A program made the position numbers and the translations under genes. From Armatimonadia bacterium (GTDB lineage: Bacteria; Armatimonadota; Zipacnadia; Zipacnadales; UBA11051), in contig JBDKRC010000317.1 of NCBI GenBank assembly GCA_039683575.1, forward strand, positions 1-18,102: a DNA stretch of 18,102 nucleotides. Direction: 5' to 3'. Below the pieces are notes generated by a model. It saw only the letters and a program-made list of their open reading frames with translations, did no database searches and was not told the origin of the DNA. Below, piece after piece: positions 1 through 15,265 of the stretch; position 1 is the first letter of the stretch; every line of letters starts with the position of its first letter.

Positions 1-32
1 AGGATAATCGGAACGGCTCGTGGACCAGACAT
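1..32 (-). CDS. N-terminal fragment of a CDS (MSGPRAVPII...), possibly an IS630 transposase/HTH ORF
   Basis: GGAG-tgatct-ATG on the minus strand with ATG at 32. Only 10 codons are visible, and the resemblance to M-x-GP-(R/K)-x-x-x-I-x-L IS630 N-termini is from recall. Confidence 0.4.
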   Translation of the reverse strand, partial: MSGPRAVPII

Positions 33-125
33 AGATCACTCCGCAAGCAAGATGATCTGCCTATTCCACAAGCCAGCCGAAATCCTTTCCTCTAACTGAT
101 TAGATATTTATTGGACAAGACACTA
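1..125 (-). mobile_element. Probable left end of an IS630-like insertion sequence (runs off the window)
   Basis: The minus strand reads CTAGTGTCTTGTCCAATAAATATC from 126. This is an AT-rich segment starting at a TA (124-125), which resembles IS630-type termini and TA targets. It lacks the host C skew and leads into an SD-preceded ATG at 32. The partner terminal repeat is not visible. Confidence 0.4.
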
Positions 126-162
126 GACTGTCGTCTCAGCTATTCCTGTTGCATGCCACCCA

Positions 163-230
163 GCCGTACGAGCGGCTTCCAGCCGCGAGGGCTACGCGCC
201 TGGAGCAGGTCTTCCAGACCTGCGGGGCTG
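163..230 (+). repeat. Two-hairpin REP-like module, copy 1
   Basis: GCCGTACGA-GCGGC ttcca GCCGC-GAG ... TGGA-GCAGGTC ttcca GACCTGC. Related copies lie at 8405-8471 and 15142-15218. Confidence 0.75.
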
Positions 231-309
231 CTGAGCCGCCAAGCCAGATTGAATCGGCAAGAATGGTCGGAAGGCCGCGTGTGGCGATATGTGATCGTGG
301 ATAGCGGCA

Positions 310-335
310 GGCGGGGTACGGAGCCCCCGCCCTAC
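310..335 (-). repeat. GTAG-type REP hairpin
   Basis: Minus strand GTAG-GGCGGGG gctccgta CCCCGCC: a GTAG tetranucleotide followed by a palindrome. Confidence 0.65.
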
Positions 336-368
336 AGTGGGGAGTCGCACCCTCATGAAGATGCCCAT

Positions 369-397
369 TTGACGCCCCCCACCAGCCGCGCTATCAT
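369..397 (+). promoter_or_regulatory. Sigma70-type promoter, near-leaderless start of the glycosyltransferase gene
   Basis: TTGACG (369-374), 17 nt, TATCAT (392-397). ATG at 408 is 10 nt downstream with no SD. Confidence 0.65.
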
Positions 398-407
398 CAT
401 CCCGATC

Positions 408-1958
408 ATGGCAACTTCCTCCCCCCCGGCGACTGGCACGCAAGCGCGCCCGCTCCTTCCGCTCCTCATCTGCCTCGCCGTCTTCTGTCTCACTGCCTCC
501 TTCTTCCGCCCCTACACCTCCGACGACTCCTTCATCACCTACCGCTACGCCCTCAATATCTCCCACGGTCTCGGCCCCGTCTACAACCCCGGCGAGGTCG
601 TCGAAGGCTACAGCAACCCGCTCTGGCTCGGCCTGCTTCTCGTCGGCCTCAAACTCGGCTTCGACCTCGTCACCTTCTCAAAAATCCTCGGCCTCCTCTG
701 CGGCCTCGGCGCCCTCCTTTGCTCCTACGGCCTAACCCTCCGCCTCACCGACGGCCGCGACTCCGCCGCCCCGTGGGGCCTCCTCCTCCTCGCCACCAGC
801 GCCGGCCTCGGCTACTACGCCCTCTCCGGCATGGAAACCCCGCTCTACGCCTTCCTGCTAACCGCCGCCGCCTATTGCCTCTTCCTCACCAGCCCCGCCG
901 CCATGGTCTCTTTGCTCCTCGCCGCCCTCGCTGCAGCCTTCACCCGCCCCGAGGGCCTCGGCATCCTTCTCGTTGTGATCTTCTGGCGCGCCGTAAGCCT
1001 CCGCGACCTCTCCGCCAGCACCCGCCGCGCCTTCTACCTCTCCACGGCCTCCGCCCTGCTCATTACCATCCTCGCCCTCCTCCTGCGCCACCGCACCTTT
1101 GGCCAGTGGCTACCCAACACCTTCTACGCCAAGCCCCCCGGCGCGTTCGGCGGCATGTCTTATCTGGCGGCCCTGACCTACCTCCGCGACTACCTGCTCA
1201 CCGGTGGCAACGCCCTCTGGCTCGCGCTAGCGGCCTGCCCGCTCCTCATCCGCCGCTGGCGCGTCCCCGCCCTCGGCGCCCTCTCCCTCGTCGTGGTCGA
1301 GGTCGCCCTGGTCGTCCACGCTCGCGGCGACTGGATGGCCCTCAGCCGCTTCCTTGTCCCCTGCACGCCCCTCCTCGTCGGCCTCGGCTACGCTGCCCTG
1401 CTCCGCAACCTCTCCTCCCGCCCACTGGTCGCCCTTCTCCTCATCCTCCTTGCCGGCCTCAACGCCATCCAGTTAGCCGAGCAAGTCACCGCCTTCCGCG
1501 CCGGTGAGTATCCCCAGAACGTCATGGCCGGCGAGCCCCAGCGCCTCGCGGGGCAGTGGCTCCGCGCCAACCTCCCGAAGGACAGCGTCATCGCCACCAA
1601 GCGCATCGGCGGCGTAGGCTACTACTCCGGCCTGCGCCTCATAGACACCCTCGGCCTCACCGACCGCCGCATCGCCATGATCCGCCATACCAGCCACACG
1701 CGCGGCGAAGCCGAGCAGCAAGCCATTGCCGCCGAAGTCTTCAGCCGCCGCCCCGATGCAATACTACTGGCCGTCATGAAACGCTGGGATAAAGTCCCCC
1801 TCGACAAGCCCGCCCCCGACGTGGCAAACAACCTCCGCGACGTAGACAACGCCCTCTACGCCGGCCTCGAAGCCCACAACTACAAGTTCCTCCGCCGCCT
1901 CCCTCAAGGCGGCGCCGGCGAGTTCGCGGTCTACCTCAGGGTAGGAGCGCTCCCCTGA
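408..1958 (+). CDS. Multi-pass membrane GT-C-fold glycosyltransferase (AftB/PMT-like, lipid-linked sugar donor)
   Basis: DD motif after TM1 (SDDSFITYRYALNISHGLGPVYNPGEVVEGYSNPLW), plus SGMETPL, TRPEG, PNTFYAK, GDWM..RF and DTLGLTD motifs and many TM segments. Start moved from 111 to ATG 408 because of the promoter and the repeat content upstream. Confidence 0.8.
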   Translation: MATSSPPATGTQARPLLPLLICLAVFCLTASFFRPYTSDDSFITYRYALNISHGLGPVYNPGEVVEGYSNPLWLGLLLVGLKLGFDLVTFSKILGLLCGLGALLCSYGLTLRLTDGRDSAAPWGLLLLATSAGLGYYALSGMETPLYAFLLTAAAYCLFLTSPAAMVSLLLAALAAAFTRPEGLGILLVVIFWRAVSLRDLSASTRRAFYLSTASALLITILALLLRHRTFGQWLPNTFYAKPPGAFGGMSYLAALTYLRDYLLTGGNALWLALAACPLLIRRWRVPALGALSLVVVEVALVVHARGDWMALSRFLVPCTPLLVGLGYAALLRNLSSRPLVALLLILLAGLNAIQLAEQVTAFRAGEYPQNVMAGEPQRLAGQWLRANLPKDSVIATKRIGGVGYYSGLRLIDTLGLTDRRIAMIRHTSHTRGEAEQQAIAAEVFSRRPDAILLAVMKRWDKVPLDKPAPDVANNLRDVDNALYAGLEAHNYKFLRRLPQGGAGEFAVYLRVGALP

Positions 1959-2225
1959 GCGCGACTGTCACCGACCAGACTCTCGCTCGCCGCCTCCCCC
2001 AAGGCGGCTCCGGTGAATTCGCGGTCTACCTCAGGGTAGGAGCGCTCCCCTGAGCGCGACTGTCACCGACCAGACCCTCGCTCGCCGCCTCCCTCAAGGC
2101 GGCGCCGGCGAATTCGCCATCTACCTCAGGGCAGGAGCGCTCCCCGCGCGACCATCCCCGACCAGCCTCTCGCTCGTCGCCTCTCCCAGGGCGGCTCCGG
2201 TGAGTTCTCCATCTACGTCAGATAG
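1893..2225 (+). repeat. Tandem array of 3.5 units (95/95/92 bp): GT gene 3' end plus a REP hairpin
   Basis: Units start at 1893, 1988, 2083 and 2175. Each begins CGYCGCCTC...GGCGGC.CCGG.GA.TTC....TCTAC.TCAG. Units 1-3 continue with G(T/C)AGGAGCGCTCCCC..GCGCGA...CCGACCAG. Confidence 0.95.
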
Positions 2226-2270
2226 TCCGGATGTGGAGGGCAGAGCAGTTGACGTTTTTCCATCAGGGGG

Positions 2271-2298
2271 TTTACGTGGGGATTGTTTCGTGTATAAT
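2271..2298 (+). promoter_or_regulatory. Sigma70-type promoter of the RNA/NYN cassette
   Basis: Perfect TATAAT at 2293-2298 and TTTACG at 2271-2276 (16-nt spacer), in an AT-richer patch. Confidence 0.65.
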
Positions 2299-2299
2299 G

Positions 2300-2384
2300 A
2301 GTCCAGTGACATTTCCTTCTGGCCTGCCCAGGTTGGAGGTCACGCGCTTCCCCGCCCTCCACTGGACTGGCGGGGTTTGTCTTT
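2300..2384 (+). ncRNA. Candidate structured small RNA or leader upstream of the NYN gene
   Basis: Nested stem GTGAC(2306-2310)/GTCAC(2339-2343), TTCC/GGAG, GGCCT/AGGTT. It is followed by hairpin CCCCGCC/GGCGGGG with a T-rich tail, whose loop CACTGGACT (2360-2368) is complementary to AGTCCAGTG (2300-2308). Confidence 0.5.
2350..2384 (+). terminator. Intrinsic terminator or attenuator between promoter and NYN start
   Basis: 7-bp GC stem (2350-2356/2369-2375) followed by TTTGTCTTT. Confidence 0.6.
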
Positions 2385-2400
2385 CGGGGGGTCCCCTTCC

Positions 2401-3081
2401 ATGCTTTCCTCTTCGCCGCTAGCCCCATCGCGCCAGAACGTGGTCTTCTTCATTGACGGCATGAATCTATGGCACGAATGCGAACGCAAGTTTCACCATG
2501 GCAATGTCCATCCGGATCTGCTGGCCGCACAGTTCCTTGGCACGCGCCACTTGAAGCAAATTCGATTCTACTGCGGGATAGACAACCCGCGCGAGAGACC
2601 CACCAGACATGCGTCGCGGACGCGACAGCACAAATCGTTCGAGGCCAAGGGTGTATACGTTTGGACGAACACGATGAAGTACTCAGATCGGGAAGCAGTT
2701 GTCGAGGGGGTTCCACCATGTCAGTGTGGGTTCAGGAAGTCGAGAATGGTCAGAGACGCCCGCGAAAAAGGGATTGATCTGCGAATAGCGCTGGACATGC
2801 TTCGTATGGCTAGACACGGAGAGTTTGATGTGGCCGTGCTTGTCTCCGCAGACAATGACATGAAGCAGGTTGTTGACGAACTCAAGCGACTCGCAGACGA
2901 AATCGGCAGGAAGATTGCTGTAGAGAACGTGGTTGTCTGGGATGAGGGCAATAAGAAATACCCCAGGATTCCGGGCTGTTCGCGCTACCACATTGTCAAC
3001 GATGCGGTCTTCCAGATCATCAAAGACACGGACGACTACACAAGATCTCCCGCCGCAACGCCATCGTCGGTAATTCCCTAG
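2401..3081 (+). CDS. NYN domain (LabA/DUF88, PIN-like) predicted ribonuclease
   Basis: Motifs VFFIDGMNL, IRFY, REKGIDLRIALDM and AVLVSADNDM carry the four acidic catalytic residues. A CQCG insert precedes EKG. Start placed at ATG 2401, after the promoter and terminator. Confidence 0.9.
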   Translation: MLSSSPLAPSRQNVVFFIDGMNLWHECERKFHHGNVHPDLLAAQFLGTRHLKQIRFYCGIDNPRERPTRHASRTRQHKSFEAKGVYVWTNTMKYSDREAVVEGVPPCQCGFRKSRMVRDAREKGIDLRIALDMLRMARHGEFDVAVLVSADNDMKQVVDELKRLADEIGRKIAVENVVVWDEGNKKYPRIPGCSRYHIVNDAVFQIIKDTDDYTRSPAATPSSVIP

Positions 3082-3097
3082 CTGCAATCAGCGTCTG

Positions 3098-6000
3098 CTA
3101 CTTCCCCACCCCCACCTCCGCCCGCGTCATCGTCTGCACCCTGTAAACCCCCTTACCCGTCCGCTGCACCCACGTCGTCGCCGGGATCCGGAACACATCC
3201 CCCGGCCCCACATCGCTGATCCACATCTGCCGCCGCCCATCCCCATCCGCGTCCTTGTATACCTCCGCCAGCGCCTTATCCCCCTTCGCCACTTTCAGCA
3301 CATTCCCGCTCGCGCTCAGTATCTTCAGACTCTCCGTCTTGTCCTCATTGTAAAGCCACCGCCCCGCATGCCGCCCGCCCTCGATCTTCCCATACCCCGC
3401 CAGCGGCGCCACGGTCTGCACGGTCCCCGCCGCTTCGTCAAACCCCTCCGCCATCGCCGTCCCCACAATGAACAGCACATCCCCAAACCCCAGCACCGTC
3501 TTGCCGTCCTTCACTGCCGCCGATTTGATCGTGTAGCTGCCCCGCTGTAGCTCATTGCCCAGTATCACCACCCGGTCCACCATCGCCTCGGGCGCCCGAA
3601 CCGCCCCCTCCACCGTAATCGCATTGGCCGCCGGATCAACCGCCACCACCTTCCCCGCTGGCGATGCTTCCACCTCAAGCGAGAAGTCCCCATACTTCAG
3701 CCGCGTCCCGTTCACCAGCAGCGCCCTCTGTACCCCCTGCTCATCCACCGTCACCAGCGCGTACTGCCCCTGCACCGCAAACTCCTTCCCCGCCCCGTCC
3801 CACACCACCATCTCGCTCGTATCCACCGCGCTGTGCACAAAGTCCGTCCCGCCTGTCCGCCGCACCGCCACCCCCACCGCTTCCGGCGCCGCCTTAGCCG
3901 CCTCCAGCAGCCGCACCTCACTCACCGCCGCCGCACCCACATGCGGCTCCACTACCGCCACATACTTCGACAGCATCCCCGGCTCGCCCACATTCCGCGC
4001 CAGCGCATACTTGATCGTCCGCGGGTTACTCGTCTGCGCCTCAGGCTCCCCATCGGCCACGATCACTTCCTGCGCGCACCCCGCCGGCATCGTCATCGTG
4101 ATCGCGAGGTCCTTCTGGTCCCAGTGGTTCCAGGTCGCGCTCCACCCCTTCTCCGGCCGCATTCGCTGCACGTTCCACAGCCCCTGCAGCCCGCTGCTGA
4201 CCCCGCTCGCCGTCGCCAGCAGCGGCTCCTCCCGCGTCAGGTCCCGCCCAATCACCATGCTGTTGATCATGATGTAGTTGATCCCGCTGTTGACCGCCTT
4301 CAGCTTCAGCGTCTCCGCCTTCGCCGGCAGCTCAAACACCTGGCTCTGCCACTTGTACGCCTTCCCGTCCTTCGTCTCGATCTTCACCGGCACCACTGTC
4401 TCCCCCAGCCGCAGCTCCACCTCGCTCAGTCCCGGCTTGTGGTCCCAGTACTCCACAAACAGCTTGTACTTCCCCGCCGCCAGCGCCGGTATCTTCACCG
4501 ACATCTCCACCCCCGGCTTAGTCGTCAAGATCCCCTTCCCATGCGGCGTCCAGGTCTCGCCCGCCTGCTTCCAGTAATCCGCCGCTTTCACCACACCCTC
4601 CCCATGCGCCAGATCCACCGCCAGGTCCCCGCCCGTCGCCCTCGCCGGTGGCTGCTTGCCATACGCCACCTCCTCCCCCGCCAGCGTCCCCTTCGTCTGC
4701 ACCGCTCCCAGTGCGCCGCCCGTCACGGTCATCTCCGGCGCGCCCGCATGGTAGCACCAGTCATGCTGCTTGCCCCCGCGCACTCGCCACACGTCCAGCA
4801 GATAAGACTGCTCCGGCGAGATGTCCACCAGCGCGCTCGTCCGCCGGTACAGCGTCGCCAGCTCCGGATACGCCCGCTCCGCCGACGCCTCCACCACCTG
4901 CACCCCCGGCGTCCCCACGAGCATCTCCAGGTCCCCCGCCTCATAGGTCATCTGCGGCAGTTCATCAACCATCACGCAGTAGTGCTTGTACGTGTCCGCC
5001 CGCCGCCATTCATAGAAATCCGGCCGTGTAAACGGCGTCGGGTACCCATCCTCCGGCATGACCACCCGCCCGTGCGAGAACATCTCCACATTGAGCCGGT
5101 CAAAGTGCCCGTGCCCGCCGCCCGCATCGCCATAGTACATGCTTAGCGCCCGCTCCCGCCCTTTCGCTCCCGTCTCCAGTATCGCGCACCCATACCCGCC
5201 CAGATTTCGCGTCTTCAGTTCCGGCAGCGTCACGCCCTCGGCCGCCTTGTCCACGGCCGCCCCGTCGAAGTAGTCCTCCATCAGCCCGCCCGAGGATGCC
5301 CCCATGTCCTTGAGCATCCGCGCATACTTCGCGTCGCGGTACTGCATGAAGGCCGTGCCCTGCAAATCCGGCGTCAGCGCAATCGGCGACGTCCCGGTGA
5401 GGCGCCCGCTGTCCCCGATGGAGGGCGAGAACCTCCCCGCCACGGTCAGATCGCGCCCGATATCCGCCATCTTCCGCAGCTTCGGATTGCTCCAGACATT
5501 CAGCCCCAATCGCGGCAGCAGTTGCGCCACGTTGTAGAAGTTAGTGCACCAGCCCGACGAGTACCCCGGCGACGACTCCGCCCCCAGCCCCTCGCGGTAG
5601 AACCCGTTCCAAAGCAGGTCCTCCATCCTCCCGCCCCCGCGCATGATCCAGTCCGTCATGTCCTTCGAGGTCGGCCCCCGCTGCGGATCATCATTCTTCA
5701 GCACCAGCGCCAGGTTCGCCAGCGTCAACTGGTGCATCCCCATGTTCCCCGCCACATACCCCGTCATCACGTCCTTCACCATCACCCACAGCATCTTCTC
5801 GATGACGTCCCCCGGCTTGCCCAGCCCCTTCCCCGCCAAAAACGCCTCCAGCCCCTTGTCCTCCGCCACCCCCGGATACACCGCATCAAACGTCAGCGCA
5901 ATATTGCTATCATTGCCGGTGCTCCAGATATAGTCAGAAATTCGCCCATTGATCCCCCACATCCCCTCATGGTAGCACTGCTTGCGGTAGTCAAACCGCT

Positions 6001-6637
6001 CGTACTCGCTCCCGATTTTCGCCAGCATCACCCCCGCCTTGTGCGCATACTCCGCCTTCCCGGTGCACAGATAAGCCGCCCGCAGCGCATTCAGCCCGCC
6101 CAGCACGTCCTTCGACCACCGCTGCCAGAAGATATAGTACGAGACAAAGTAGTACCGCCGCCCGTCCTTCTTATCCACCCACCCGACTCCATTGTCCGCA
6201 TACCCCGGCTCCTCCACTGGCTTCCCCGCCAGCCCCTCGGTATTCCACGGCTTGAAGTCATTGCTCGGAAACACCGTCTGGCACACCGGGCACTTGACCT
6301 TGAAGGGCTGCTCCCGGCTCGTAATCCAGGGATAATGCCCCGCCTTCCGGTTGACCTCATCCCCGCAGATGGGGCAATCATGCGCGATGCAGACATTGAT
6401 AGCCCGCATCTGCTCCGGCGGCGGCACAAAGTCCCAAAGCTCCTGATCGCTCATCGCCAGAATCCACGCACACTCCCGCTCCAACCCCGCCACCTCATCC
6501 TTAGCCGCCTGCGAACCCGCGATCTTGCCCTTCAGCCGAGACATAAAGGCCTCGTCATAATAAGTCCGCGCTTGCTTGGCCGAGACGCCAGACAGCGACA
6601 GTAGCAGCAAGATGACCAGCAGCAGGCACTTTTCCAC
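3098..6637 (-). CDS. Secreted heparinase II/III-like polysaccharide lyase
   Basis: Signal peptide, alpha-toroid region (GNMGMHQ, EGLGAESSPGYS), GHGHFDRLNVEMF and HYCVMVDE motifs, and LYRRT...YLLDVWRVRGGKQHDW. GTG start at 6637 with GGAGGA SD 7 nt upstream. Confidence 0.8.
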   Translation of the reverse strand: MEKCLLLVILLLLSLSGVSAKQARTYYDEAFMSRLKGKIAGSQAAKDEVAGLERECAWILAMSDQELWDFVPPPEQMRAINVCIAHDCPICGDEVNRKAGHYPWITSREQPFKVKCPVCQTVFPSNDFKPWNTEGLAGKPVEEPGYADNGVGWVDKKDGRRYYFVSYYIFWQRWSKDVLGGLNALRAAYLCTGKAEYAHKAGVMLAKIGSEYERFDYRKQCYHEGMWGINGRISDYIWSTGNDSNIALTFDAVYPGVAEDKGLEAFLAGKGLGKPGDVIEKMLWVMVKDVMTGYVAGNMGMHQLTLANLALVLKNDDPQRGPTSKDMTDWIMRGGGRMEDLLWNGFYREGLGAESSPGYSSGWCTNFYNVAQLLPRLGLNVWSNPKLRKMADIGRDLTVAGRFSPSIGDSGRLTGTSPIALTPDLQGTAFMQYRDAKYARMLKDMGASSGGLMEDYFDGAAVDKAAEGVTLPELKTRNLGGYGCAILETGAKGRERALSMYYGDAGGGHGHFDRLNVEMFSHGRVVMPEDGYPTPFTRPDFYEWRRADTYKHYCVMVDELPQMTYEAGDLEMLVGTPGVQVVEASAERAYPELATLYRRTSALVDISPEQSYLLDVWRVRGGKQHDWCYHAGAPEMTVTGGALGAVQTKGTLAGEEVAYGKQPPARATGGDLAVDLAHGEGVVKAADYWKQAGETWTPHGKGILTTKPGVEMSVKIPALAAGKYKLFVEYWDHKPGLSEVELRLGETVVPVKIETKDGKAYKWQSQVFELPAKAETLKLKAVNSGINYIMINSMVIGRDLTREEPLLATASGVSSGLQGLWNVQRMRPEKGWSATWNHWDQKDLAITMTMPAGCAQEVIVADGEPEAQTSNPRTIKYALARNVGEPGMLSKYVAVVEPHVGAAAVSEVRLLEAAKAAPEAVGVAVRRTGGTDFVHSAVDTSEMVVWDGAGKEFAVQGQYALVTVDEQGVQRALLVNGTRLKYGDFSLEVEASPAGKVVAVDPAANAITVEGAVRAPEAMVDRVVILGNELQRGSYTIKSAAVKDGKTVLGFGDVLFIVGTAMAEGFDEAAGTVQTVAPLAGYGKIEGGRHAGRWLYNEDKTESLKILSASGNVLKVAKGDKALAEVYKDADGDGRRQMWISDVGPGDVFRIPATTWVQRTGKGVYRVQTMTRAEVGVGK

Positions 6638-6707
6638 GCGAATGTCCTCCGTGCCAGAGCGTGATACAGTCTCGACGTGCCCTGACGACTTGTTAATGAT
6701 AGAGTAA

Positions 6708-6730
6708 GTGGGAGGGGCTTTCAGCCCTGA
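6708..6730 (+). repeat. GTGG-type REP hairpin
   Basis: GTGGGA-GGGGCT ttc AGCCCT-GA, similar to GTGGGAGGGGCCACTGGCCCCGA at 14018-14040. Confidence 0.6.
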
Positions 6731-6766
6731 AGACCACGCAACATGCGCCGGAACGAAGCCCATCCG

Positions 6767-6937
6767 TTAGGGCCGCGACCGCCGCAGTCTCACCTCGATA
6801 TCAGCGGGCTCAGTGAAGTACTGGGACGGGTCATGGGTGTCCCAGAACCGCAGTTCCTGTTCCTCTGTCTCGAAATTGGGGAGCTCTCTGTAGGGCTTGC
6901 GTGAAGGTCTGTCCGGTTGTTTCCCTGAATTGGGCAT
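6767..6937 (-). CDS. 56-aa CopG/BrnA-type antitoxin N-terminal domain (orphan, no RHH part); absent from the ORF track
   Basis: Manual translation MPNSGKQPDRPSRKPYRELPNFETEEQELRFWDTHDPSQYFTEPADIEVRLRRSRP*. The P-x-F-x-T/S-EE-x-E-x-x-FWDTHD motif is characteristic of CopG_antitoxin-family proteins. Confidence 0.75.
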   Translation of the reverse strand: MPNSGKQPDRPSRKPYRELPNFETEEQELRFWDTHDPSQYFTEPADIEVRLRRSRP

Positions 6938-6943
6938 GGCTAC

Positions 6944-6972
6944 ACCATACAGTTCCGCAGGTGTGCTGACAA
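6944..6972 (-). promoter_or_regulatory. Sigma70-type leaderless promoter for the antitoxin-like ORF
   Basis: TTGTCA (6972-6967), 17 nt, TATGGT (6949-6944), 6 nt, ATG (6937). Confidence 0.5.
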
Positions 6973-7012
6973 TGATGAGTCGCGGGTAATCCTACTCCAC
7001 TGGTGATACAAC

Positions 7013-8377
7013 ATGTCTTGGCACCTCACCTCCTGCATCTTGGTAACCATATCCATGCTTCCACTCCAAGCCGCCCCCGCCCCGCCTGCCACCTTCCAAT
7101 CCGGCGACACCGTCGCCATCATCGGCGACAGCATCACCCACGGCCGCAAGTGGCACCGCTACGTCTACAACTACTATTTGACCCGCTTCCCCGACCGCCA
7201 GGTCCGATTTGTTAACCTCGGCATCGCCGGCGACTCCGCCGGTGGCGCTGTCCGCCGCCTCGACTGGGACATCCTCCCCAACCGCCCCAACGTCGCCGCC
7301 ATCTTCCTGGGCATGAATGACGTGGGCCGTGGCAACTACGCCCCCGGCGAGCCCACTGAGGCCGTCCTCAAGGCTCGCCAGGCCGCCCTGGACAACTACG
7401 CCAAGAACATGGACGAGCTATCCCAAAAGCTCCTCGCCAATGGCGTGCAGCGCCTCGTCTTCATCACGCCCTCCCCCTACGACGACACCGCCGACATAGG
7501 CGAGAACTTCCCCGGCGTCAACGCCGCCCTCGCCCGCTGCGGCCAGATCGGCCGCGAACTCGCCGCCAAGTACCACGGCAGCGTCATCGACCTCAACGGC
7601 CCCATGACCGCCCTCAACCTCGAGCACCAGAAGACCGATCCCAAGTTCACCGTCATCGGCCCCGACCGCGTCCACCCCGGCGACCTCGGCATGATGGTCA
7701 TCGCCTACTACTTCCTCACCGGCCAAAACGCCCCCACCCTCGTCTCCCGCGTCGCCATAGCCAATGGCAAAGCCGACACCGCCAACGCCGACCTCACCAA
7801 CCTCAGAACCACCGACCAGGGCCTCTCCTTCGACCTGCTCGAAAAGTCCCTCCCGTGGCCGATCGAGGCCAGCGCCAGACCGGCCCTGGACCTCGTGCCG
7901 CTCGAACAAAACCTCAACCAGCAGCAGTTCGCCGCCACCCTACCCGCCGGCACCTACCGTCTCACCATCAACAACCAACCCGTCGGCGACTACACCGCCG
8001 AAGCCCTCAAAGCGGGCGTCAACCTCGCCCTCAATGACAAGACGCCGCAATACCAGCAGGCTCTCAAGGTCTGGCAGACCAACGAGCAGCGCTCCGCTCT
8101 CGAAATCCGCATCCGCACCATGGCCCAGATCCAGGCGATCATCAAGCCCAGGGGCGTCAACGAGGACGATCCGGCCGCTACGGAGGCCTCCTTCAACGAA
8201 TGGCTCTCCCACGTCGGCGAAAGCATGCACCCCTACTTCAAGAGCCAGTTCAACGTCTACAAATCCACGCGCACCGATCTGCCCAACCTCAAGCAGCAGA
8301 TCGAGACTCTCCAGCAGCAGCTATGGCAGCTAGACCAGCCTGTCCCGCACCATTATGAGTTGACGCGCCTGCCGTGA
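7013..8377 (+). CDS. Secreted SGNH/GDSL hydrolase (carbohydrate esterase-like)
   Basis: Blocks GDSIT, NLGIAGD, LGMND and DRVHP, with a signal peptide ending LQA-A. Confidence 0.92.
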   Translation: MSWHLTSCILVTISMLPLQAAPAPPATFQSGDTVAIIGDSITHGRKWHRYVYNYYLTRFPDRQVRFVNLGIAGDSAGGAVRRLDWDILPNRPNVAAIFLGMNDVGRGNYAPGEPTEAVLKARQAALDNYAKNMDELSQKLLANGVQRLVFITPSPYDDTADIGENFPGVNAALARCGQIGRELAAKYHGSVIDLNGPMTALNLEHQKTDPKFTVIGPDRVHPGDLGMMVIAYYFLTGQNAPTLVSRVAIANGKADTANADLTNLRTTDQGLSFDLLEKSLPWPIEASARPALDLVPLEQNLNQQQFAATLPAGTYRLTINNQPVGDYTAEALKAGVNLALNDKTPQYQQALKVWQTNEQRSALEIRIRTMAQIQAIIKPRGVNEDDPAATEASFNEWLSHVGESMHPYFKSQFNVYKSTRTDLPNLKQQIETLQQQLWQLDQPVPHHYELTRLP

Positions 8378-8404
8378 GCAGCCGCCGCACCCACTGACCA
8401 TTCT

Positions 8405-8471
8405 GCCGTACGAGCGGCATCCTTGCCGCGAGCTGACGCCACTGGAGCCCGGCTTCCAGCCGGGCGGGCTG
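8405..8471 (+). repeat. Two-hairpin REP-like module, copy 2
   Basis: GCCGTACGA-GCGGCA tcct TGCCGC-GAG ... TGGA-GCCCGGC ttcca GCCGGGC-GGGCTG. Confidence 0.75.
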
Positions 8472-8509
8472 TCGCACCCACACACCCGACGAACACGGAG
8501 CCAACACCC

Positions 8510-10669
8510 ATGTCCCTCCAAACCGGAACCCTTCGCCTCACCAAGACCCCCTCCGGCTGGAACCTCCGCTGGCCCAACCACCCTCGCGCCGCCGCCACAA
8601 AAATGGGGACTGACCCCGTTTTCGCCCTCTCCCCGTCAGCCCCCCAACAACCCCCATGCGAAAATGGGGTCTGTCCCCATTTTCCCGACGCCAAAGCCAC
8701 CCTCGAATCCTCCTTCACCCAAAACAACGTCCGCTTCACCACCGCCGCCCTCGCCCTCCCCGGCTCCTCCCAGATCATCTTCACCGTCACCGCCCACAAC
8801 CTCTCCGCCTCCCCGGTGACCATCGATAGCCTCAGCCTCCTCCACACCGAAGCCCTAACCCTCGGCCGCCTCACCGCCGACACCCCCTGCTCCGTCTACG
8901 TGGACTCCGGCAGCCAGGGCGGCACCCACGTCGCCCCGCTCGGCGAGGGCCAAACTTGCGCGGGCATATGCGCCATCCAAAACCCCGCCGCCAACCTCGG
9001 CTTCGTCTGTGCCTTCCTCTCCTTCGCCCACGACAACACCATCCAAGTCGCCTCCTCCGCCTCCGGCCTCTCCCTCCGCGCCACGACCACCACTCCGGTC
9101 ACCCTCGCTCCCGGCGAGGAGCACCGCTACGACTCTCTCCTCCTCGACGTCCGCCCGAGCGCGCTGGAAGCCATGGAAGCCTACGCCTCCGTAGTCAAAG
9201 CCGTGGTCAATCCGCCCCTTCCTGCCGAGCTCCCCATGGGCTGGCTGTCCTGGTACGCCTACCGCCTCACCATGACCGAAGACCTCATCCTGCAAAACGC
9301 CGCCATCGTCGCCCACCACTTCCAGAAGTACGGCGTCAACATGATTCACCCCGACCACGGCTGGCAGTACAAGGACATCTGCGGCCACTGGGTCAACAAC
9401 GAGAAGTTCTCTCACGGCATGAAATGGCTAGCCCGCAAGCTCGCCAAGCTGGACCTGACCCTCGGCCTCTGGGTCGCCCCCTCCACCATCTCCGAGTGGG
9501 CGCCCTTCTACAAGGAGCATCCCGAGGGCCTCGTCGCCGGTCCGGACGGCAAGCCTCTCGTCATCAGCGAGAAGTGGTACTGGGCCCCGCACGGCAAGAC
9601 CTTCAACCTCAACCCGCTCACCGCCGCCGGCGAGCAGTACCTGCGCGACTTCGGCAAGCAAATGCGCTCCTACGGCGCGGTCTACCTCAAAACCGACTTC
9701 ATCGGCGGCTGGCACGGTGCCCGCCGCCTCCGCCAGGGCATGCGCGTCCTGCGCGAGGCCGTCGGCCCCGACATGACCCTCCGCCCCTGCAGCACCGCCC
9801 TCAACACCCAGCTTGGCGTCTGCAACGAAATCGGCATCGCCCGCGACATTGGCAACGCCAACAGCCTCTGGGAGCACCTGCAGGTCGAGACCCTCGAACT
9901 TGCCTCCAAGTGGTTCATGCACAACAAGTTCTGGCTCAACAATCCCGACGTCCTGATCGTCGGCGACCCCGAAGAGACCCCCGGCGAGGCCCGTGGCCGC
10001 GTCACTCTCCTCGCCCTCACCGGCGGCGTAGTCTTCCTCGGCGACCGCATGCCCGAGCTCGAACAGCAACCCGCCCGCCTCGCCCTGTGCAGCCTCTGTA
10101 TCCCTTCCAGTAACCAGCCCGCCCGCCCGCTCGACCTCTTCGACTGTGGCCGCGACCGCACCTATCCCCGCCTCTGGCACCTCCCCGCGCGCCCCAAGTG
10201 GGGCACTTGGGAAATCCTCGGCCTCTTCAACTGGTCCGACCAGCCGCTAACGGAGACCATCACCCGCGACACCCTCAACCTCCCGCCCGGCCAGTACCTC
10301 GTCTGGGACTTCTGGAACCAAAAGCTCCTCGGCAAGCTAGGCCGCGGCCTAACCATAGAAGTCCCCCCCGGCGACGCCGCCTGCCTCCGCATCATGCCCA
10401 TCCCGCACCATCCCACGGTCCTCTCCACCAACATGCACATAACCCAGGGCCTCGTCGAACTCAGCAACGTCAAATGGAACGAAGACCAGCGCAAGCTAAC
10501 CGGCGAAGCCACCCGAGCCCCCGAGGAGTCTGGCACCATCTACCTCTACCTCCCCAAGGGCTACAACCTCCGCCAGACCAAGTCCGCAACGATGCTAGCC
10601 CCCAACATAGCCAAACTCGACGTAACCTTCCAAAGCCCCACCCGCCGCTGGTCCGCCACTTTCGACTAG
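8510..10669 (+). CDS. Alpha-galactosidase-like glycoside hydrolase (clan GH-D, GH36/GH27)
   Basis: PMGWLSWY, HPDHGWQ, GLWVAP, YLKTDF (nucleophile), IARDI (acid/base), WLNNPD and FLGD. ATG 8510 has GGAG at 8497-8500. Confidence 0.85.
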   Translation: MSLQTGTLRLTKTPSGWNLRWPNHPRAAATKMGTDPVFALSPSAPQQPPCENGVCPHFPDAKATLESSFTQNNVRFTTAALALPGSSQIIFTVTAHNLSASPVTIDSLSLLHTEALTLGRLTADTPCSVYVDSGSQGGTHVAPLGEGQTCAGICAIQNPAANLGFVCAFLSFAHDNTIQVASSASGLSLRATTTTPVTLAPGEEHRYDSLLLDVRPSALEAMEAYASVVKAVVNPPLPAELPMGWLSWYAYRLTMTEDLILQNAAIVAHHFQKYGVNMIHPDHGWQYKDICGHWVNNEKFSHGMKWLARKLAKLDLTLGLWVAPSTISEWAPFYKEHPEGLVAGPDGKPLVISEKWYWAPHGKTFNLNPLTAAGEQYLRDFGKQMRSYGAVYLKTDFIGGWHGARRLRQGMRVLREAVGPDMTLRPCSTALNTQLGVCNEIGIARDIGNANSLWEHLQVETLELASKWFMHNKFWLNNPDVLIVGDPEETPGEARGRVTLLALTGGVVFLGDRMPELEQQPARLALCSLCIPSSNQPARPLDLFDCGRDRTYPRLWHLPARPKWGTWEILGLFNWSDQPLTETITRDTLNLPPGQYLVWDFWNQKLLGKLGRGLTIEVPPGDAACLRIMPIPHHPTVLSTNMHITQGLVELSNVKWNEDQRKLTGEATRAPEESGTIYLYLPKGYNLRQTKSATMLAPNIAKLDVTFQSPTRRWSATFD
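8599..8684. repeat. Inverted pair of 25-bp palindromes inserted in frame in the GH36 gene
   Basis: AAAAATGGGGACTGACCCCGTTTTC (8599-8623) and GAAAATGGGGTCTGTCCCCATTTTC (8660-8684). They match 22/25 as reverse complements, and each is self-palindromic. Confidence 0.85.
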
Positions 10670-10693
10670 CCAAACACGGGCCTCCGACTCACG

Positions 10694-10719
10694 AAAAAGG
10701 GGCGCCCAAGGGCGCCCCT
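10694..10719 (-). terminator. Intrinsic terminator (possibly bidirectional) between convergent GH genes
   Basis: AGGGGCGCCC/GGGCGCCCCT stem with an A5 tract on the left, which reads as T5 on the minus strand. Confidence 0.7.
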
Positions 10720-10735
10720 CGTACTCATCATCTCA

Positions 10736-10851
10736 GTAGCGCGGGCGGCTCGCCCGCGCCCGCCGTCATCCCGGAGTGTTCCGTCCCCACGTCCCGGAGG
10801 GACGCCCATGCCCTAGCCCGGGGTTTCAACCCCGGGCGGCTCGCCCGCGCC
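10736..10851 (+). repeat. Cluster of REP-like palindromes
   Basis: GTAGCGCGGGCGGCTCGCCCGCGC (10736-10759, core repeated at 10833-10851), CGTCCCggaGGGACG (10790-10804) and AGCCCGGGGTTTCAACCCCGGG (10815-10836). Confidence 0.75.
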
Positions 10852-10861
10852 ACCCACCCCC

Positions 10862-11135
10862 CTCACCCTCTCCTCTCCCGCCGTATCCTCCCCATCCTCG
10901 CCGTTATCCTGTCCATCCTGTATGCCTTCTCCCCTCGCGCCACCCATCTCCGACCAAACGTGCCATCCTGAGGAGCGTCGTCTGCGACGAAGGATCTCCG
11001 CCCTTTCCCGCCACGTCGCCGAGCTTCTTCGCTCTCTGGACTGGCATCCGGGCCCAGAACGACAACCTCTCACCCTCTCCTCTCCCGCCGTATCCTCCCC
11101 ATCCTCGCCGTTATCCTGTCCATCCTGTATGCCTT
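10862..11135 (+). repeat. Two identical 67-bp direct repeats flanking an imperfect inverted-repeat element
   Basis: 10862-10928 is identical to 11069-11135. Between them lie TGCCATCCTGAG...CGAAGGATCTC (10961-10998) and GAGCTTCTTCG...CCCAGAACGACA (11021-11064). Confidence 0.9.
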
Positions 11136-11155
11136 TTCTCCCCCCGCAACCGACC

Positions 11156-13876
11156 TCACTCAAACGAATAAGGCCGACTCCGCACCACAAACGCCTTCTT
11201 CGCCCCGCCCTCAACCACCATCTCTCCAACCGCCGCGACCCGCACCATCCCCGCCTGCCGCGGCACCTTCACACTCACCGTCGCGCCCGCCTTCGGCAGC
11301 GCCCCCAGGTCCGCCAGCTTCCGCCCCTCCATGTCCTGCAGCTCCAGCTTCCCTGCCGCGCCCGATACCTTCTGCCGGTGCTGGCCCAGCCCCACGACCT
11401 CCACCTTCACCGGTAGCTCCGCCTCCTTCACCACAATCGCCGTCCGCTGCTCGTCATACGCCGTGCTGAACTTGATCCGCGGCGCATTGTGCGGCAGTAT
11501 CGCCGGCTCCGAAGTCATCCCTTCCGCATACCGCGGCAGCCCGTACTCGGCCAGGTTCTTGCCCATGTTGAACAGGATGAACCCATCCGCCCCGTTCGCC
11601 CGCGCCAGTTCCATCTGGCTGACTACCTGGTCGTCCTCGATGATGAACTGCCCGATCCCGCTATACAGCGGCACGTTGCTGTTGATCTGGTTGACCTGGT
11701 TCGACACCAGCGCGCTCAGCCGCGAGTCGCTCTCCGTGTAGTTCATCGGGCACACGAAGTCCAGCCATCCCTCACGGCACCACAGCACCCAGTCCTGCCC
11801 CACAGAGCTTCGGGACCCGGGATAGTCGCTGAACACCGCCGCCGAGATCTTGATCCACGGCTTGATCGCATGCGCCTGCTCAGATACTGCCTTCACCAGC
11901 CGCGTGATCTGCGCGCACCGGAAGTCCTGGTACTCCGCCTTCAGAGCCCCGCTCACGCAATCCGCCGGCCAGTCGGCCACCTTTGCCCCGCGCCCTTGCT
12001 CAAACCTCTCCCGGCACCCGTTGCAGTAGCACGACTCGCCGCCGGGATACCGGATATAGTCGAAGTGCACTCCATCCACATCATAGTTCCGCACCACTTC
12101 CAGCATCGTGTCCAGCTCGAGTTTGAAGTTCGCCGGGTTCGACGAACACAGCCACCTCAGCTCCTCGCCCTTGTTGCTGACCTGCAGCCGCCCCTCCTGC
12201 CGCATCTTCTCTACAAACTCCTGCGGCGCGGTCGACAGGTTCCAGTTCACCTTCCACGGGTGGACCTCGACGCCATACTTCTTCCCCGCCGCCACGCACT
12301 GCGCGATCTGGTCGCCCTGCTCATTGAAAGTCTTCGAGTGCGGCAAGAGCTTGCTGTCATAGTGCGCCACCCCGCCCCACCACATGTTCGGCACCACGGC
12401 ATTGAAGTTCCCCGCCTTCAGCCGCTTCATCGCCTCCTCCCAGCTACCGCAGTCCCCCGTCCCCGAGTGGTTCCACACCGCGCGGAACTCCGACGTCCGC
12501 GGCGTGTGCGCCACAAAGTAGCTGTCGGCCAGCGCGTCATGATACTTCTGTGCCGCCGCCAGCACCTCCGGGTACTTCTTGTCACCCAAAAGCTGCTGCG
12601 CCTGCTTCTCCGCCACCGCTGCCGCCGCCGTAGCTGCTTTCACCTTGTCGGCAAACGCACTCCCCGGTGTCACCTTATCCAGCCACGCCTTCAGCTCCGT
12701 CCGCGTGGCATACGGCCCGACTTTCTCCGCCTTCGCCAACGCCAACTGCGCCGCCGTCGGCCAGGCGTCCGGCACGAAATGCCCGATCAGCGCCATCAAG
12801 AACGCCTGCTTAGCCGCCGAGTCCGCGTCGGTCAGCACATGCCCCATGAACGCCCCGTTGTCGTTGATCACGACCGCAGGACCCTGCGTCTTGCCCTCCG
12901 CGTCCTGCCACACCCCGATCACCTTCGCGCCCTCGCCCGCCTCGAATCCCGTCGAATTCCACGAATTCTGCGCCATTATCGCCGGCAGCCCCGGCAGCGC
13001 CCCCTCCTCGAACTTCACGTTCGCAAATTGCCCCTCGCGCTCTCGCGGCCGGTAGGCCATCTTCGTAGCCCCGAGCAGCCCCGCCAGCCTTCCCGGCAGC
13101 GAGTAGAACACGATGATCTTCCCGCCGCCCTCCACATACTCCGCCGCCTTGTTGACGGTCTCCTCAGCCATCCCCGGACTATACGCAAAGATCGCCAGCT
13201 TCTGGTTCTTCAGCGCCCCGCCCGCTACATCGCTATCGGTCAAGACCCCATACCGCAGCCCGGTCTTGTCCAGGAACGTGCAAAGCTGCTTAGCCACACC
13301 CTGCGCCGACTTCGCCTCCGCCCCGGTCCCGCCGCCGCAAACCACCGCCAGATCCTCCGTCCGCGCCCCAAGGTTGTCTATCGCGCAGAAGCTGTCCTCC
13401 GGCTTGCCGCGCCACACGTTCACTCGAATCGTGTCCACCTTGTCCCAACCGGCAGGTTGGTCTTCCACGCGAAAGATGCCCTTGCCGAGGCTGATGCGCT
13501 GCCAGCCTTTGTTGGCTGAGAAGCCCCCGCCATACCAGCCGTTGCCGCTATGGAAGTAGATGGTGCAAGACCCGCCCACCCCATCGGTATCGGCATAGAA
13601 ATCAAAAGTAATCGCCCCGGCCTTCAGCAGGTCCAGATTGACCTTCCGGTCATACGCCGCGCGATTTACCTCCTGCGAAAACGGGCATGGGATCTTCAGT
13701 GTCTGCTTGTTGCCATGCGCCATGAGTTCCGCCGGCCCCGACTTCTCCACCGGCTGCCAGGCCTCACGCAGAGCCGTCAAGTCCGCATAGTTGAACTCGT
13801 CAATCTTCACAACCTCCGCCCCAAAACAAACCGCCCCAACCGCCAGCAAACAGACACCAATGATCAAGCCGCGCAT
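11156..13876 (-). CDS. Secreted family-10-like glycosyl hydrolase (GHL10/DUF187) with N-terminal CBM-like and class-I GATase-like domains
   Basis: EFRAVW, FNAVVPNMWWGG.AHYDS, GVEVHPW, WLCSSNP, YDVDGVHFDYIRYP, QDW..W...GWLDFVCPMNY, a signal peptide and a GGGAGG SD. Confidence 0.88.
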   Translation of the reverse strand: MRGLIIGVCLLAVGAVCFGAEVVKIDEFNYADLTALREAWQPVEKSGPAELMAHGNKQTLKIPCPFSQEVNRAAYDRKVNLDLLKAGAITFDFYADTDGVGGSCTIYFHSGNGWYGGGFSANKGWQRISLGKGIFRVEDQPAGWDKVDTIRVNVWRGKPEDSFCAIDNLGARTEDLAVVCGGGTGAEAKSAQGVAKQLCTFLDKTGLRYGVLTDSDVAGGALKNQKLAIFAYSPGMAEETVNKAAEYVEGGGKIIVFYSLPGRLAGLLGATKMAYRPREREGQFANVKFEEGALPGLPAIMAQNSWNSTGFEAGEGAKVIGVWQDAEGKTQGPAVVINDNGAFMGHVLTDADSAAKQAFLMALIGHFVPDAWPTAAQLALAKAEKVGPYATRTELKAWLDKVTPGSAFADKVKAATAAAAVAEKQAQQLLGDKKYPEVLAAAQKYHDALADSYFVAHTPRTSEFRAVWNHSGTGDCGSWEEAMKRLKAGNFNAVVPNMWWGGVAHYDSKLLPHSKTFNEQGDQIAQCVAAGKKYGVEVHPWKVNWNLSTAPQEFVEKMRQEGRLQVSNKGEELRWLCSSNPANFKLELDTMLEVVRNYDVDGVHFDYIRYPGGESCYCNGCRERFEQGRGAKVADWPADCVSGALKAEYQDFRCAQITRLVKAVSEQAHAIKPWIKISAAVFSDYPGSRSSVGQDWVLWCREGWLDFVCPMNYTESDSRLSALVSNQVNQINSNVPLYSGIGQFIIEDDQVVSQMELARANGADGFILFNMGKNLAEYGLPRYAEGMTSEPAILPHNAPRIKFSTAYDEQRTAIVVKEAELPVKVEVVGLGQHRQKVSGAAGKLELQDMEGRKLADLGALPKAGATVSVKVPRQAGMVRVAAVGEMVVEGGAKKAFVVRSRPYSFE

Positions 13877-13911
13877 AATACCCTCCCGTAACCATTCTGC
13901 AATTCCAGAAC

Positions 13912-14155
13912 ATCACCCCGACCAACCAAGGTCCCGCGTCCCACCGTAAGGAGGGGCCGAGCTTCAGCCGGCCCGCCGTTATCTCCGACCAACGATGTGG
14001 GAAAGGCCATTGCCTCTGTGGGAGGGGCCACTGGCCCCGACGCATCCCTGCCCGCCGGCCGTTATCCCCGACCAACCCTCGTCACGCGTCTTTGGACGGG
14101 CCGCATGACCACAGCCTCACCGTGGTCATCCGGCCCACGCCGTTATCCATGACCC
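13912..14155. repeat. Degenerate array: GGGCC..GGCCC hairpins each followed by GCCGTTATCyCCGACCAAC
   Basis: Motif at 13975-13993 and 14058-14076 (18/19 identical), degenerate at 14139-14155 and partial at about 13912-13926. Confidence 0.7.
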
Positions 14156-14229
14156 CCTGTCGTCTCCCCGCCCCCAGCCCCCTCCCCCCCCCGCCCGCCA
14201 GTCCCGTCGCGCTCTCCCCGCCAGAACCC

Positions 14230-14263
14230 AAAGCGGGCGAGGGAACCAAATCCCTCGCCCGCT
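14230..14263 (-). terminator. Intrinsic terminator of the isomerase gene
   Basis: Perfect 13-bp stem AGCGGGCGAGGGA/TCCCTCGCCCGCT about 30 nt after the stop codon, with a short T tail on the minus strand. Confidence 0.7.
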
Positions 14264-14292
14264 AGATGCCACATTCCTACCTCAAACACCTG

Positions 14293-15114
14293 CTAGCAAA
14301 GCGGCTCCAGAATCGCCATCGCCGCCTTGATATCATCAACCTGCTTATCCCCGCTGATCTCGCGCTCAATCGTCAGTGCCCCGCAGTACCCCATGCTCTT
14401 GAGCTTCGGTACCAGCACCGGGAAGTTCACGCGCCCTTCGCCCATCGGCTTCTCGTGGCCCAGATCCTTGCCATTGGTCGGGTACTCCCCGTCCTTGGCA
14501 TGCACGCCGCGCACCCACGTGCCGAACACGTCGAGCGCATCCACCGGGTTGCCGTTGCCATACATCAGAATGTTGGCCGGGTCGAGGTTGATGCCCTGGT
14601 TGTCGTAACCAACGTCCTCAATCGTCCGCAAAAGCGTGATCGGCGTCTCCTGGCCGGTCTCATACCAGAACTGCACGCCATTGTCGGTGCAGGCCGCCAG
14701 CACGTCCTTCAGGGCCGCCACGGTCTCGATATACTTCCGGTCGCCGGGCCACTCGGGGATGAACCCGCAGTGCGTGGTGATGGACGCGATCCCGATCTCG
14801 CCGGCCACAGCCGCTGCGGCCTGCAGCGCCTTCACACGCTCGGCGCGCCACTCATCCGGAACGAGCCCGATGGTGCTCGGCCCCTCGGTGAAGTTCCACA
14901 CTGCCGGCCCGGGCAGGCTCGCCCACAGCGTCGTCACAGTCACGTTATGCGCTTCAGCCGCGGCCTTCAGCGCGTGTCCGGTCTCAATGGTAGCCGAAGG
15001 CGGCCACCCAAGCTGGCACGACGGCAGGCCCAGGCTCTGCACCTTGGCCATAGCCTCATCAGGATCGCCCTCCCGCAGGTGCAGCATTACACCAATCATC
15101 AACTTACAAGACAT
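14293..15114 (-). CDS. Sugar phosphate isomerase/epimerase (xylose isomerase-like TIM barrel, AP endonuclease 2 family)
   Basis: HCGFIPE, ETGQE, INLDPAN, VHAKDG, GEGRVNF and LTIERE metal-binding motifs. ATG 15114 has an AAGGGAG SD. Confidence 0.92.
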   Translation of the reverse strand: MSCKLMIGVMLHLREGDPDEAMAKVQSLGLPSCQLGWPPSATIETGHALKAAAEAHNVTVTTLWASLPGPAVWNFTEGPSTIGLVPDEWRAERVKALQAAAAVAGEIGIASITTHCGFIPEWPGDRKYIETVAALKDVLAACTDNGVQFWYETGQETPITLLRTIEDVGYDNQGINLDPANILMYGNGNPVDALDVFGTWVRGVHAKDGEYPTNGKDLGHEKPMGEGRVNFPVLVPKLKSMGYCGALTIEREISGDKQVDDIKAAMAILEPLC

Positions 15115-15141
15115 AGCAATCTCCCTTAACCGATTATCAGT

Positions 15142-15218
15142 CGTACGAGCGGCATCTTTGCGACTGCACACAGTCGCCACGCGAGATAACGCCAACAAAG
15201 CCGGGCTTCCAGCCCGGC
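15142..15218 (+). repeat. Two-hairpin REP-like module, copy 3, with a nested extra hairpin
   Basis: CGTACGAGCGGCATCTTT[GCGACTG caca CAGTC]GCCACGCGAG...GCCGGGC ttcca GCCCGGC. Confidence 0.7.
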
Positions 15219-15265
15219 GTCAAATGACCGCTTACGCCGCTTCCACGTCCGCAGCTACCATTCGC

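Follow-up and report, generated by a model that had tools for sequence, protein, structure and literature searches.

A conserved hairpin RNA directly upstream of NYN nuclease genes in more than ten phyla, probably part of an undescribed RNA-controlled nuclease module

The DNA considered here is an 18,102-nt stretch from an Armatimonadia bacterium (GenBank assembly GCA_039683575.1, contig JBDKRC010000317.1, positions 1 to 18,102 of the forward strand), hereafter called the window. It carries an intact gene for a NYN-domain (PIN-like) nuclease, immediately preceded by a promoter, a short structured leader RNA and a putative intrinsic terminator. A first-pass annotation, made from the letters of the window, had described a perfect TATAAT, a nested hairpin, a GC-stem/T-tail terminator and an intact NYN gene, all of which are indeed present, and had proposed that they make up a type III-like RNA-antitoxin system. 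We find that this layout of promoter, RNA, terminator and NYN is conserved upstream of homologues in many phyla, with covariation in the stem. The hairpin is, on comparative evidence, a well-supported and widely distributed RNA motif, which occurs across more than ten phyla and is missing from Rfam 15. Together, the conserved hairpin and the NYN nuclease probably represent an undescribed RNA-controlled nuclease module.

In each of the genomic homologues nearest to the window protein, three in number (45–47% protein identity), TTGACA-17-TAtAAT is followed by a short RNA with a GC stem and a T tail and then by the start codon. More broadly, 160 loci were fetched from named genomes and metagenomes, and 165 loci had a tblastn match; the N-terminus was included in 133 of these 165, giving 117 distinct upstream regions. 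Nearly all of the 117 carry the same element, with the consensus core AnTTnCTCCCCGCCnGACnnGCCGnAAGGCCTCGGGCGGGGTTATTTTTTT. By record title, cultured carriers of the canonical cassette include Caulobacter radicis 695, Aureimonas altamirensis A31, Afifella pfennigii DSM 17143 and Salibaculum halophilum WDS1C4. In the structure drawn from 79 instances, an outer stem of 9 bp and an inner stem of 3 bp are separated by an asymmetric internal loop, in which an A is invariant, and the inner stem is capped by a GNRA-type loop. The first-pass annotation had suggested looking for covariation upstream of homologues, and a conserved covarying structure was found: 96.2% of the cells in the 79-sequence alignment are paired, and compensatory change is seen in 9 of the 12 pairs. 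None of 500 shuffles reached any of the measures, and slid controls paired 41–61% of cells. G–U pairs, which occupy 77 of 944 cells, would be A–C mismatches on the opposite strand; because they work on one strand only, the structure belongs to the RNA read in the NYN sense. Several counts in this work come from simple custom scripts, and the promoter and terminator calls are predictions.

Sequence conservation extends to positions that do not pair. Conservation of at least 90% is seen for the unpaired A in the internal loop, for the loop of GNRA type, and for both the A-UU-CU leader at the 5′ end and the UUAUUU tail, while the proteins encoded behind them are only about 25–48% identical to the window NYN. 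This conservation of unpaired positions suggests that the element is more than a plain terminator, which would be less constrained. A covariance model, R1, was built from the 79 instances and matches 122 of 167 homologous loci (50 of 87 and 72 of 80), canonical members scoring 40–82 bits. All 128 R1 hits fall on the NYN strand, almost all of them just 5′ of the gene, and the loci with no hit are mostly distant NYN paralogues, contigs truncated at their 5′ end or an Armatimonadetes-type variant. Among unique upstream regions of at least 200 nt, a script located a hairpin followed by a T-run on the sense strand in 100 of 113, versus 5 of 113 on the antisense strand.

The hairpin is also coupled to a promoter. 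Homologous loci show TTGACA-16/17-TAnnnT at the promoter position, and a promoter scoring at least 9/12 precedes 58 of 93 family hairpins, compared with 5 of 93 in shuffles. In 50 of the 58 promoter-bearing loci the −10 element ends 13–16 nt before the stem, a spacing that puts a conserved A at the likely transcription start and gives a canonical RNA of about 60 nt, in which 7 nt of leader are predicted to precede the hairpin and a U tail to follow it. The end of the stem lies at a median of 21 nt from the start codon (74 loci, a rough estimate). Since this leaves no room for a separate promoter after the stem, NYN would be expressed only from read-through transcripts.

The motif is linked exclusively to NYN in the genomes tested. 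Four genomes contain exactly one motif and one family NYN gene each, side by side, and in 150 further genomes from one order R1 gave two matches of about 31 bits, both plain terminators without NYN. The leader was also considered as a mobile hairpin of the miniature inverted-repeat transposable element or repetitive extragenic palindromic (REP) kind, a reading rejected for this family on account of its single copy per genome, always beside NYN. Apart from the RNA, no conserved partner gene was found among 457 neighbouring open reading frames (ORFs) at 117 loci, where the most frequent neighbour, a type I methylase, is shared by 5 loci. Pfam searches of 139 neighbours returned type I restriction-modification domains (4–5 members each), integrases and otherwise unrelated genes, and some cassettes are embedded in type I restriction-modification loci. 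As for previous descriptions of the RNA, the Rfam search that had been suggested yielded no family: there was no relevant Rfam 15 match in window positions 1–4000 (E up to 10), and no family on the element in 15 loci (E up to 1) or in 7 more (E up to 5). The sole Rfam overlap was anti-hemB in one locus, L061, where its 23.9 bits fall short of the gathering score, 49.5. Full-text searches of the literature found no report of an RNA partner for a bacterial NYN protein, nor any paper combining NYN with ‘type III toxin-antitoxin’.

Judged by its genomic settings, the cassette is both mobile and self-contained. The gene is present on thirteen predicted viral contigs, 11 of which also have the R1 motif. 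In locus L214 (1808–2613), the entire 805-nt gap between terminase and portal is taken up by promoter, RNA and NYN, and L211, L212/L213, L216 and L217 are built in the same way, with the cassette between the large terminase and the portal (six loci, five distinct). The contigs bearing these terminase–portal cassettes are 11–22 kb long and resemble gene-transfer-agent or prophage-like head modules.

The RNA occasionally occurs without the protein as well. In the genome of L048 (L048 3700–6740 and a second contig) the hairpin RNA is present ten times or more, the copies falling into two sequence types and mostly having their own promoter and terminator; six RNA units of L048 each have both. The sole family NYN gene of this genome is split by a one-base frameshift. 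On our reading of the sequence, the L048 copies are interleaved with duplicated fragments of an HslV-like gene. In L057 an orphan promoter–hairpin unit (2110–2290), with a 17-codon remnant behind it, lies 1.7 kb upstream of an intact cassette. The same metagenome-assembled genome (MAG) contributes four NYN loci (L057, L063, L080 and L084). Two tandem hairpins were seen once among about 117 loci, in L061.

Some further observations concern the surroundings of individual cassettes. A conserved 142-aa protein (a cluster of 4 loci) is encoded directly upstream on the same strand in L109, L112 and L113, and a 1058-aa protein is found further upstream in three loci among these surroundings. Among the neighbour proteins of all loci taken together, three match DUF7680. 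In L042 (3552–3633), L108 and L173 a tRNA gene is no more than a few hundred bases away from the cassette, and these may be sites of island integration. L083, whose record is titled as a Halobacteria archaeon MAG, has a 62-bit R1 hit before its NYN match, which reflects either transfer into archaea or a binning error.

The features of the window itself are collected in Table 1. Two promoter-like sites were found within 1800–3400, versus a mean of 0.4 in shuffles, and usual promoter spacing predicts a transcription start near A2305. The long imperfect 5′ hairpin is placed by minimum-free-energy (MFE) folds of both the window and L013. Within the terminator loop there is a mini-stem, UCC 2358–2360 / GGA 2364–2366, closed by the triloop ACU. 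This terminator was detected by our own script; a general terminator scan, which covers loops of 3–8 nt only, omitted it because of its 12-nt loop. From the end of the tail to the NYN ATG there are 15 nt. The folding energy of 2295–2400 is ordinary (z −0.47; 58 of 200 shuffles at least as stable), and the arrangement stands out from chance because it is conserved in homologous loci, not from the window by itself.

Table 1. Predicted elements of the NYN cassette in the window (positions count from the first letter of the window)
Feature	Positions	Strand	Details
Sigma-70-type promoter	2271–2298	+	−35 TTTACG 2271–2276; 16-nt spacer; −10 TATAAT 2293–2298; 10/12 consensus matches
Complementary 9-mer	2300–2308	+	AGTCCAGTG; exact complement of CACTGGACT at 2360–2368 in the terminator loop
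5′ leader hairpin	2306–2344	+	Basal stem GUGAC 2306–2310 / GUCAC 2340–2344; inner stem-loop about 2318–2332; MFE fold
Intrinsic-terminator hairpin	2350–2385	+	CCCCGCC 2350–2356 / GGCGGGG 2369–2375; 12-nt loop 2357–2368; tail TTTGTCTTTC 2376–2385
Shine-Dalgarno-like G-run	2386–2391	+	GGGGGG, 9 nt before ATG; GGGGG or GGAGG at the same place in family loci
NYN-domain (PIN-like) nuclease gene	2401–3081	+	ATG 2401, stop 3081; 226 aa; intact

Relative to the family, the window RNA is unusual. The best R1 hit in the whole window, both strands considered, is a weak one at 2335–2397 (14.9 bits, E 0.051), which falls in the homologous position and aligns the outer stem and tail only, the 12-nt loop replacing the inner stem-loop. 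A search of the window's own genome with R1 gave no hit at E ≤ 1, a result that is uninformative given that the window's own variant scores just 14.9 bits. An alignment of all seven leaders from the closest clade (A5) reveals a common promoter and a common 3′ half (GGACU, G-rich strand, UUU). Compared with L021, L014, L102, L103 and L104, the window and L013 have about 30 nt inserted as an additional 5′ hairpin, and their terminator is shorter, with the identical loop UCCACUGGA. From this alignment, the window RNA is taken to be a divergent variant of a clade-specific family RNA. The evidence for the two-hairpin leader, including the 5′ hairpin and the 9-nt complement, comes from two sequences, those of the window and L013.

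The first-pass annotation had further noted that nine bases of the terminator loop complement 2300–2308, had suggested a pseudoknot or an alternative fold, and had cautioned that the predicted start might clip the 5′ pairing strand. The complement is exact, and a self-complementary run of at least 9 nt arose in 12 of 2000 mononucleotide shuffles of 2299–2384. The caution was justified, as a start near A2305 would leave only about four of the nine bases inside the RNA. L013, the sole relative sharing the two-hairpin leader, lacks the 9-mer complement, and a full pseudoknot in the window looks sterically implausible with 0 nt between both 3′ strands. The proposed fold is thus specific to the window and lies mostly upstream of the predicted start, and we do not retain it.

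A different repeat lies nearby, outside the cassette. A 95-bp unit is repeated 3.5 times in tandem (88% matches) at window 1893–2221 and is found also at 15794 and in loci L002–L010. The array begins within the last codons of the upstream ORF 111–1958, so that the 3′ end of that gene has an out-of-frame duplicate. The core of the repeat (GGTAGGAGCGCTCCCCTGAGCGCGAC...) has 46 matches in the genome, which fall on both strands and often form inverted pairs, and the array looks like an element of the REP or REPIN (REP doublet forming hairpins) type. It was also considered as a ToxI-like repeat antitoxin and rejected: it lies upstream of the promoter, begins inside the 3′ end of the upstream gene and is absent from homologous loci, and its core is dispersed genome-wide.

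The protein belongs to the NYN family by profile and by predicted structure. NYN (PF01936) is the only Pfam domain reported, with 40.6 bits against a cut-off of 24.2 (E 4.7e-10), and an NCBIfam search with the protein returned nothing. In a 55-sequence alignment (A3), N22, E122, K123, G124, D126, D132, D143, D151 and D153 are invariant and D19 is conserved in at least 90%. The AlphaFold model has a mean predicted local distance difference test score (pLDDT) of 94, and the best matching folds in the PDB are 2qip (E 1.1e-7, template modelling (TM) score 0.71) and the MARF1 NYN domain 5yaa (E 3.4e-4, TM 0.65–0.68), both TM values being normalised to the target. The model therefore points to a NYN/PIN-like fold, in which the conserved acidic residues would make up the pocket. 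A Cys-x-Cys/His motif (PPCxHG, residues about 105–110) and a Cys-x3-His motif (C.R.H, about 190–197) are conserved together in the closest NYN clade and are both missing in P0014 and P0015; they may form a zinc site, absent from the wider family. A longer NYN ORF from GTG 2200 was considered and rejected, as homologues begin 10–14 residues before the conserved FIDG block, and the DNA upstream of their starts is conserved as promoter and hairpin, not as protein.

The distribution of the gene is sporadic. Of 401 genomes in the phylum, 2 carry it (E ≤ 1e-20), it was not found in two of three genomes of the same genus, and 424 cluster representatives among 1.84 billion match its protein at E ≤ 1e-30. 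A plasmid collection gave one weak match to the window protein and a phage collection gave none. No syntenic cassette-free site was found in the same-genus genomes, in which the flanking genes are about 65–68% identical and lie on different contigs. The neighbours in the window are a membrane protein without a Pfam match, a heparinase II/III-like protein, a GDSL lipase and glycoside hydrolases.

A described, weakly similar relative is the candidate defence protein HEC-09, which likewise is a stand-alone NYN protein of about 200 aa. The PADLOC profile for HEC-09 (PDLC04163) matches the window NYN with E 2.3e-11 over 2–147 of 203 positions and 54 of 55 family members with a best E of 1e-17, as against 1e-27 to 1e-98 for true members; we read the window family as a sister family of HEC-09. 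HEC-09 sits in Hma helicase-methylase-ATPase defence loci (bioRxiv 10.1101/2024.01.29.577857), whereas the window locus does not. HEC-09 proper was present in 15 of 400 gammaproteobacterial genomes. In these Gammaproteobacteria, a promoter and two hairpins, the second a GC hairpin with a T-run, likewise occupy the region just 5′ of the gene in part of the HEC-09-type loci: two hairpins with a T-run were found in 9 of 15 loci by script and in 11 by eye, versus 1 of 45 control windows. These leaders are unrelated to the family RNA, and R1 matches none of the 15. The first hairpin has a UUCG-type loop in L201–L204 and L206, and the second is GGGGCCUC-UUCG-GAGGCCCC with a T-run in L203, L204 and L206; three of L195–L210, namely L195, L196 and L210, have hairpins without a T-run. 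That NYN subfamilies keep different leaders points to co-evolution of RNA and protein.

How might the two parts work together? We suggest that transcription from the strong promoter yields a short hairpin RNA (about 80 nt in the window and about 60 nt in the canonical family), which would end at the intrinsic terminator, its hairpin stopping most transcripts. Only those few transcripts that extend past the terminator would allow NYN to be translated, so that the short RNA would accumulate in excess, by the same logic as in a type III toxin-antitoxin locus. The RNA would be the nuclease's own specific partner, binding NYN and keeping it inactive or in check, and a loss of transcription, for instance during phage infection, would free the nuclease. 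Termination, RNA excess, RNA–protein binding, inhibition and a role in toxicity or defence are, in this scheme, what we infer from sequence.

A specific interaction of some kind between the RNA and NYN is quite probable, given that conservation in different phyla extends to unpaired bases and that no neighbour other than NYN is conserved. As to the nature of that interaction, the reading we tentatively put first is a two-part cassette whose RNA inhibits NYN in the manner of an antitoxin. It is conceivable, though we would not yet call it likely, that the cassettes form a new class of RNA–protein toxin-antitoxin or abortive-infection systems, structurally unrelated to ToxIN, CptIN and TenpIN, in which a single-hairpin RNA with a promoter and terminator of its own restrains a NYN ribonuclease. 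Such a class would have spread horizontally over more than ten phyla, reaching prophage or gene-transfer-agent-like head modules and restriction-modification loci as well, and other NYN subfamilies, HEC-09-type ones among them, would use their own cognate leaders alike.

Several points weigh against an inhibitory, antitoxin-like RNA. Known RNA antitoxins are labile (PMC5086642), and the family RNA is a very stable GC hairpin. It has no repeat array and shows no sign of processing by the nuclease. HEC-09, a distant NYN relative, gave no protection against any phage tested (bioRxiv 10.1101/2024.01.29.577857). The window's own RNA fits the family model weakly (E 0.051). The cassettes between terminase and portal place the terminator inside a late operon, so it may leak or be conditional, and the frameshifted NYN of the L048 genome indicates that the nuclease can be dispensable. 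Finally, linkage and co-inheritance suit an autoregulatory leader equally well.

Such a leader is a serious alternative, which we consider somewhat less probable than the antitoxin-like reading. Here the hairpin would be the 5′ end of the NYN mRNA, bound or cleaved by NYN to set its own level, with the short RNA as a by-product. RNase III, RNase E and PNPase regulate themselves via their own leaders. The position of the hairpin would suit this role, with its beginning some 7 nt past the predicted start and its end beside the ribosome-binding site, at a median distance of 21 nt from the start codon, as would the one-to-one linkage of motif and gene in cis and the way in which RNA variants track NYN clades (the Armatimonadetes-type variant and the HEC-09-type two-hairpin leaders). 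However, the T tail is as conserved as the stem, which a binding or cleavage site would not need; a gene whose transcription is subsequently attenuated would not be expected to have promoters so close to consensus; and L048 and L057 contain stand-alone RNA units, with their own promoter and terminator and no NYN ORF behind them. We favour an inhibitory, antitoxin-like RNA over a purely cis-acting autoregulatory leader, since excess production of an RNA that acts in trans would agree with the T tail, with the strength of the promoters and with the existence of RNA units that stand alone or are duplicated.

A passive attenuator, in which a strong promoter and a leaky terminator hold a potentially harmful nuclease at a low constitutive level with no specific contact between RNA and NYN, and in which co-transfer and the constraints on a terminator account for the conservation, is improbable. 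It would accommodate the ordinary folding energy in the window, the fact that generic terminators reach about 31 bits with R1, and a window hairpin that has lost the family inner stem-loop and kept the stem and tail. It sits poorly with a loop and unpaired positions that hold at 90% or more over more than ten phyla in front of proteins about 25–48% identical to that of the window, with the existence of orphan and duplicated RNA units, and with the retention by distinct NYN subfamilies of their own leader types. An independent small RNA that pairs with targets in trans and is merely co-located with NYN would explain the separate promoter and terminator and the orphan copies, and its 5′ segment CUCCCC does complement G-rich Shine-Dalgarno runs and could pair with G-rich ribosome-binding sites, but this is very improbable, the C-rich segment being locked within the 9-bp GC stem, just about 7 nt of the RNA being single-stranded, and the motif lying solely beside NYN in the four genomes tested.

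If the RNA does control the nuclease, a new protein fold and a much simpler RNA architecture would be added to the RNA-antitoxin systems. The absence of a protein partner from stand-alone bacterial NYN genes, among them the catalogued HEC-09, for which no phenotype has so far been seen, would then be explained, and a hairpin of 60 nt with a nuclease of 210 aa would make a compact RNA–protein pair for study. However the RNA may act, it marks a small and phylogenetically broad family of NYN genes.

Among known systems, the E. coli genes rnc, rne and pnp have a structured autoregulatory element at the 5′ end of the RNase's own mRNA, and the cassette resembles them in this placement. They differ in having no conserved T tail, in not forming separate transcription units and in not moving between phyla with the gene. 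Type II VapBC modules are similar in combining a PIN-like nuclease with a small, sporadic two-part cassette, but their upstream partner is a protein antitoxin, while here a conserved RNA hairpin is found and no conserved partner ORF. Phage morons are comparable as self-contained units with their own signals, as is the cassette between terminase and portal in L211–L214, L216 and L217; the terminator of the cassette, however, precedes the gene and does not lie behind it.

The nearest comparison is with the type III systems ToxIN, CptIN and TenpIN/AbiQ. Type III loci consist of a single promoter, an RNA, a Rho-independent terminator and then an RNase gene, and the RNA exceeds the protein (PMC5086642). 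A single promoter and a terminator between RNA and RNase gene are both predicted here, and in each case small mobile cassettes occur in phage-related and defence settings. On the other hand, the nuclease has a NYN/PIN-like fold and is not ToxN, CptN or TenpN; the type III RNA is a tandem array cut into pseudoknotted units, whereas the present RNA is a single hairpin with native ends; and the family consensus is a nested hairpin backed by covariation, not a pseudoknot. Of the first-pass proposal, the layout has stood, and RNA and gene were found to travel jointly as a cassette, while the single hairpin without repeats and the different toxin family depart from the type III pattern. Formal membership of type III fails on the repeat array, the toxin family and the pseudoknot, and by analogy the cassette may work like a type III system without being a member.

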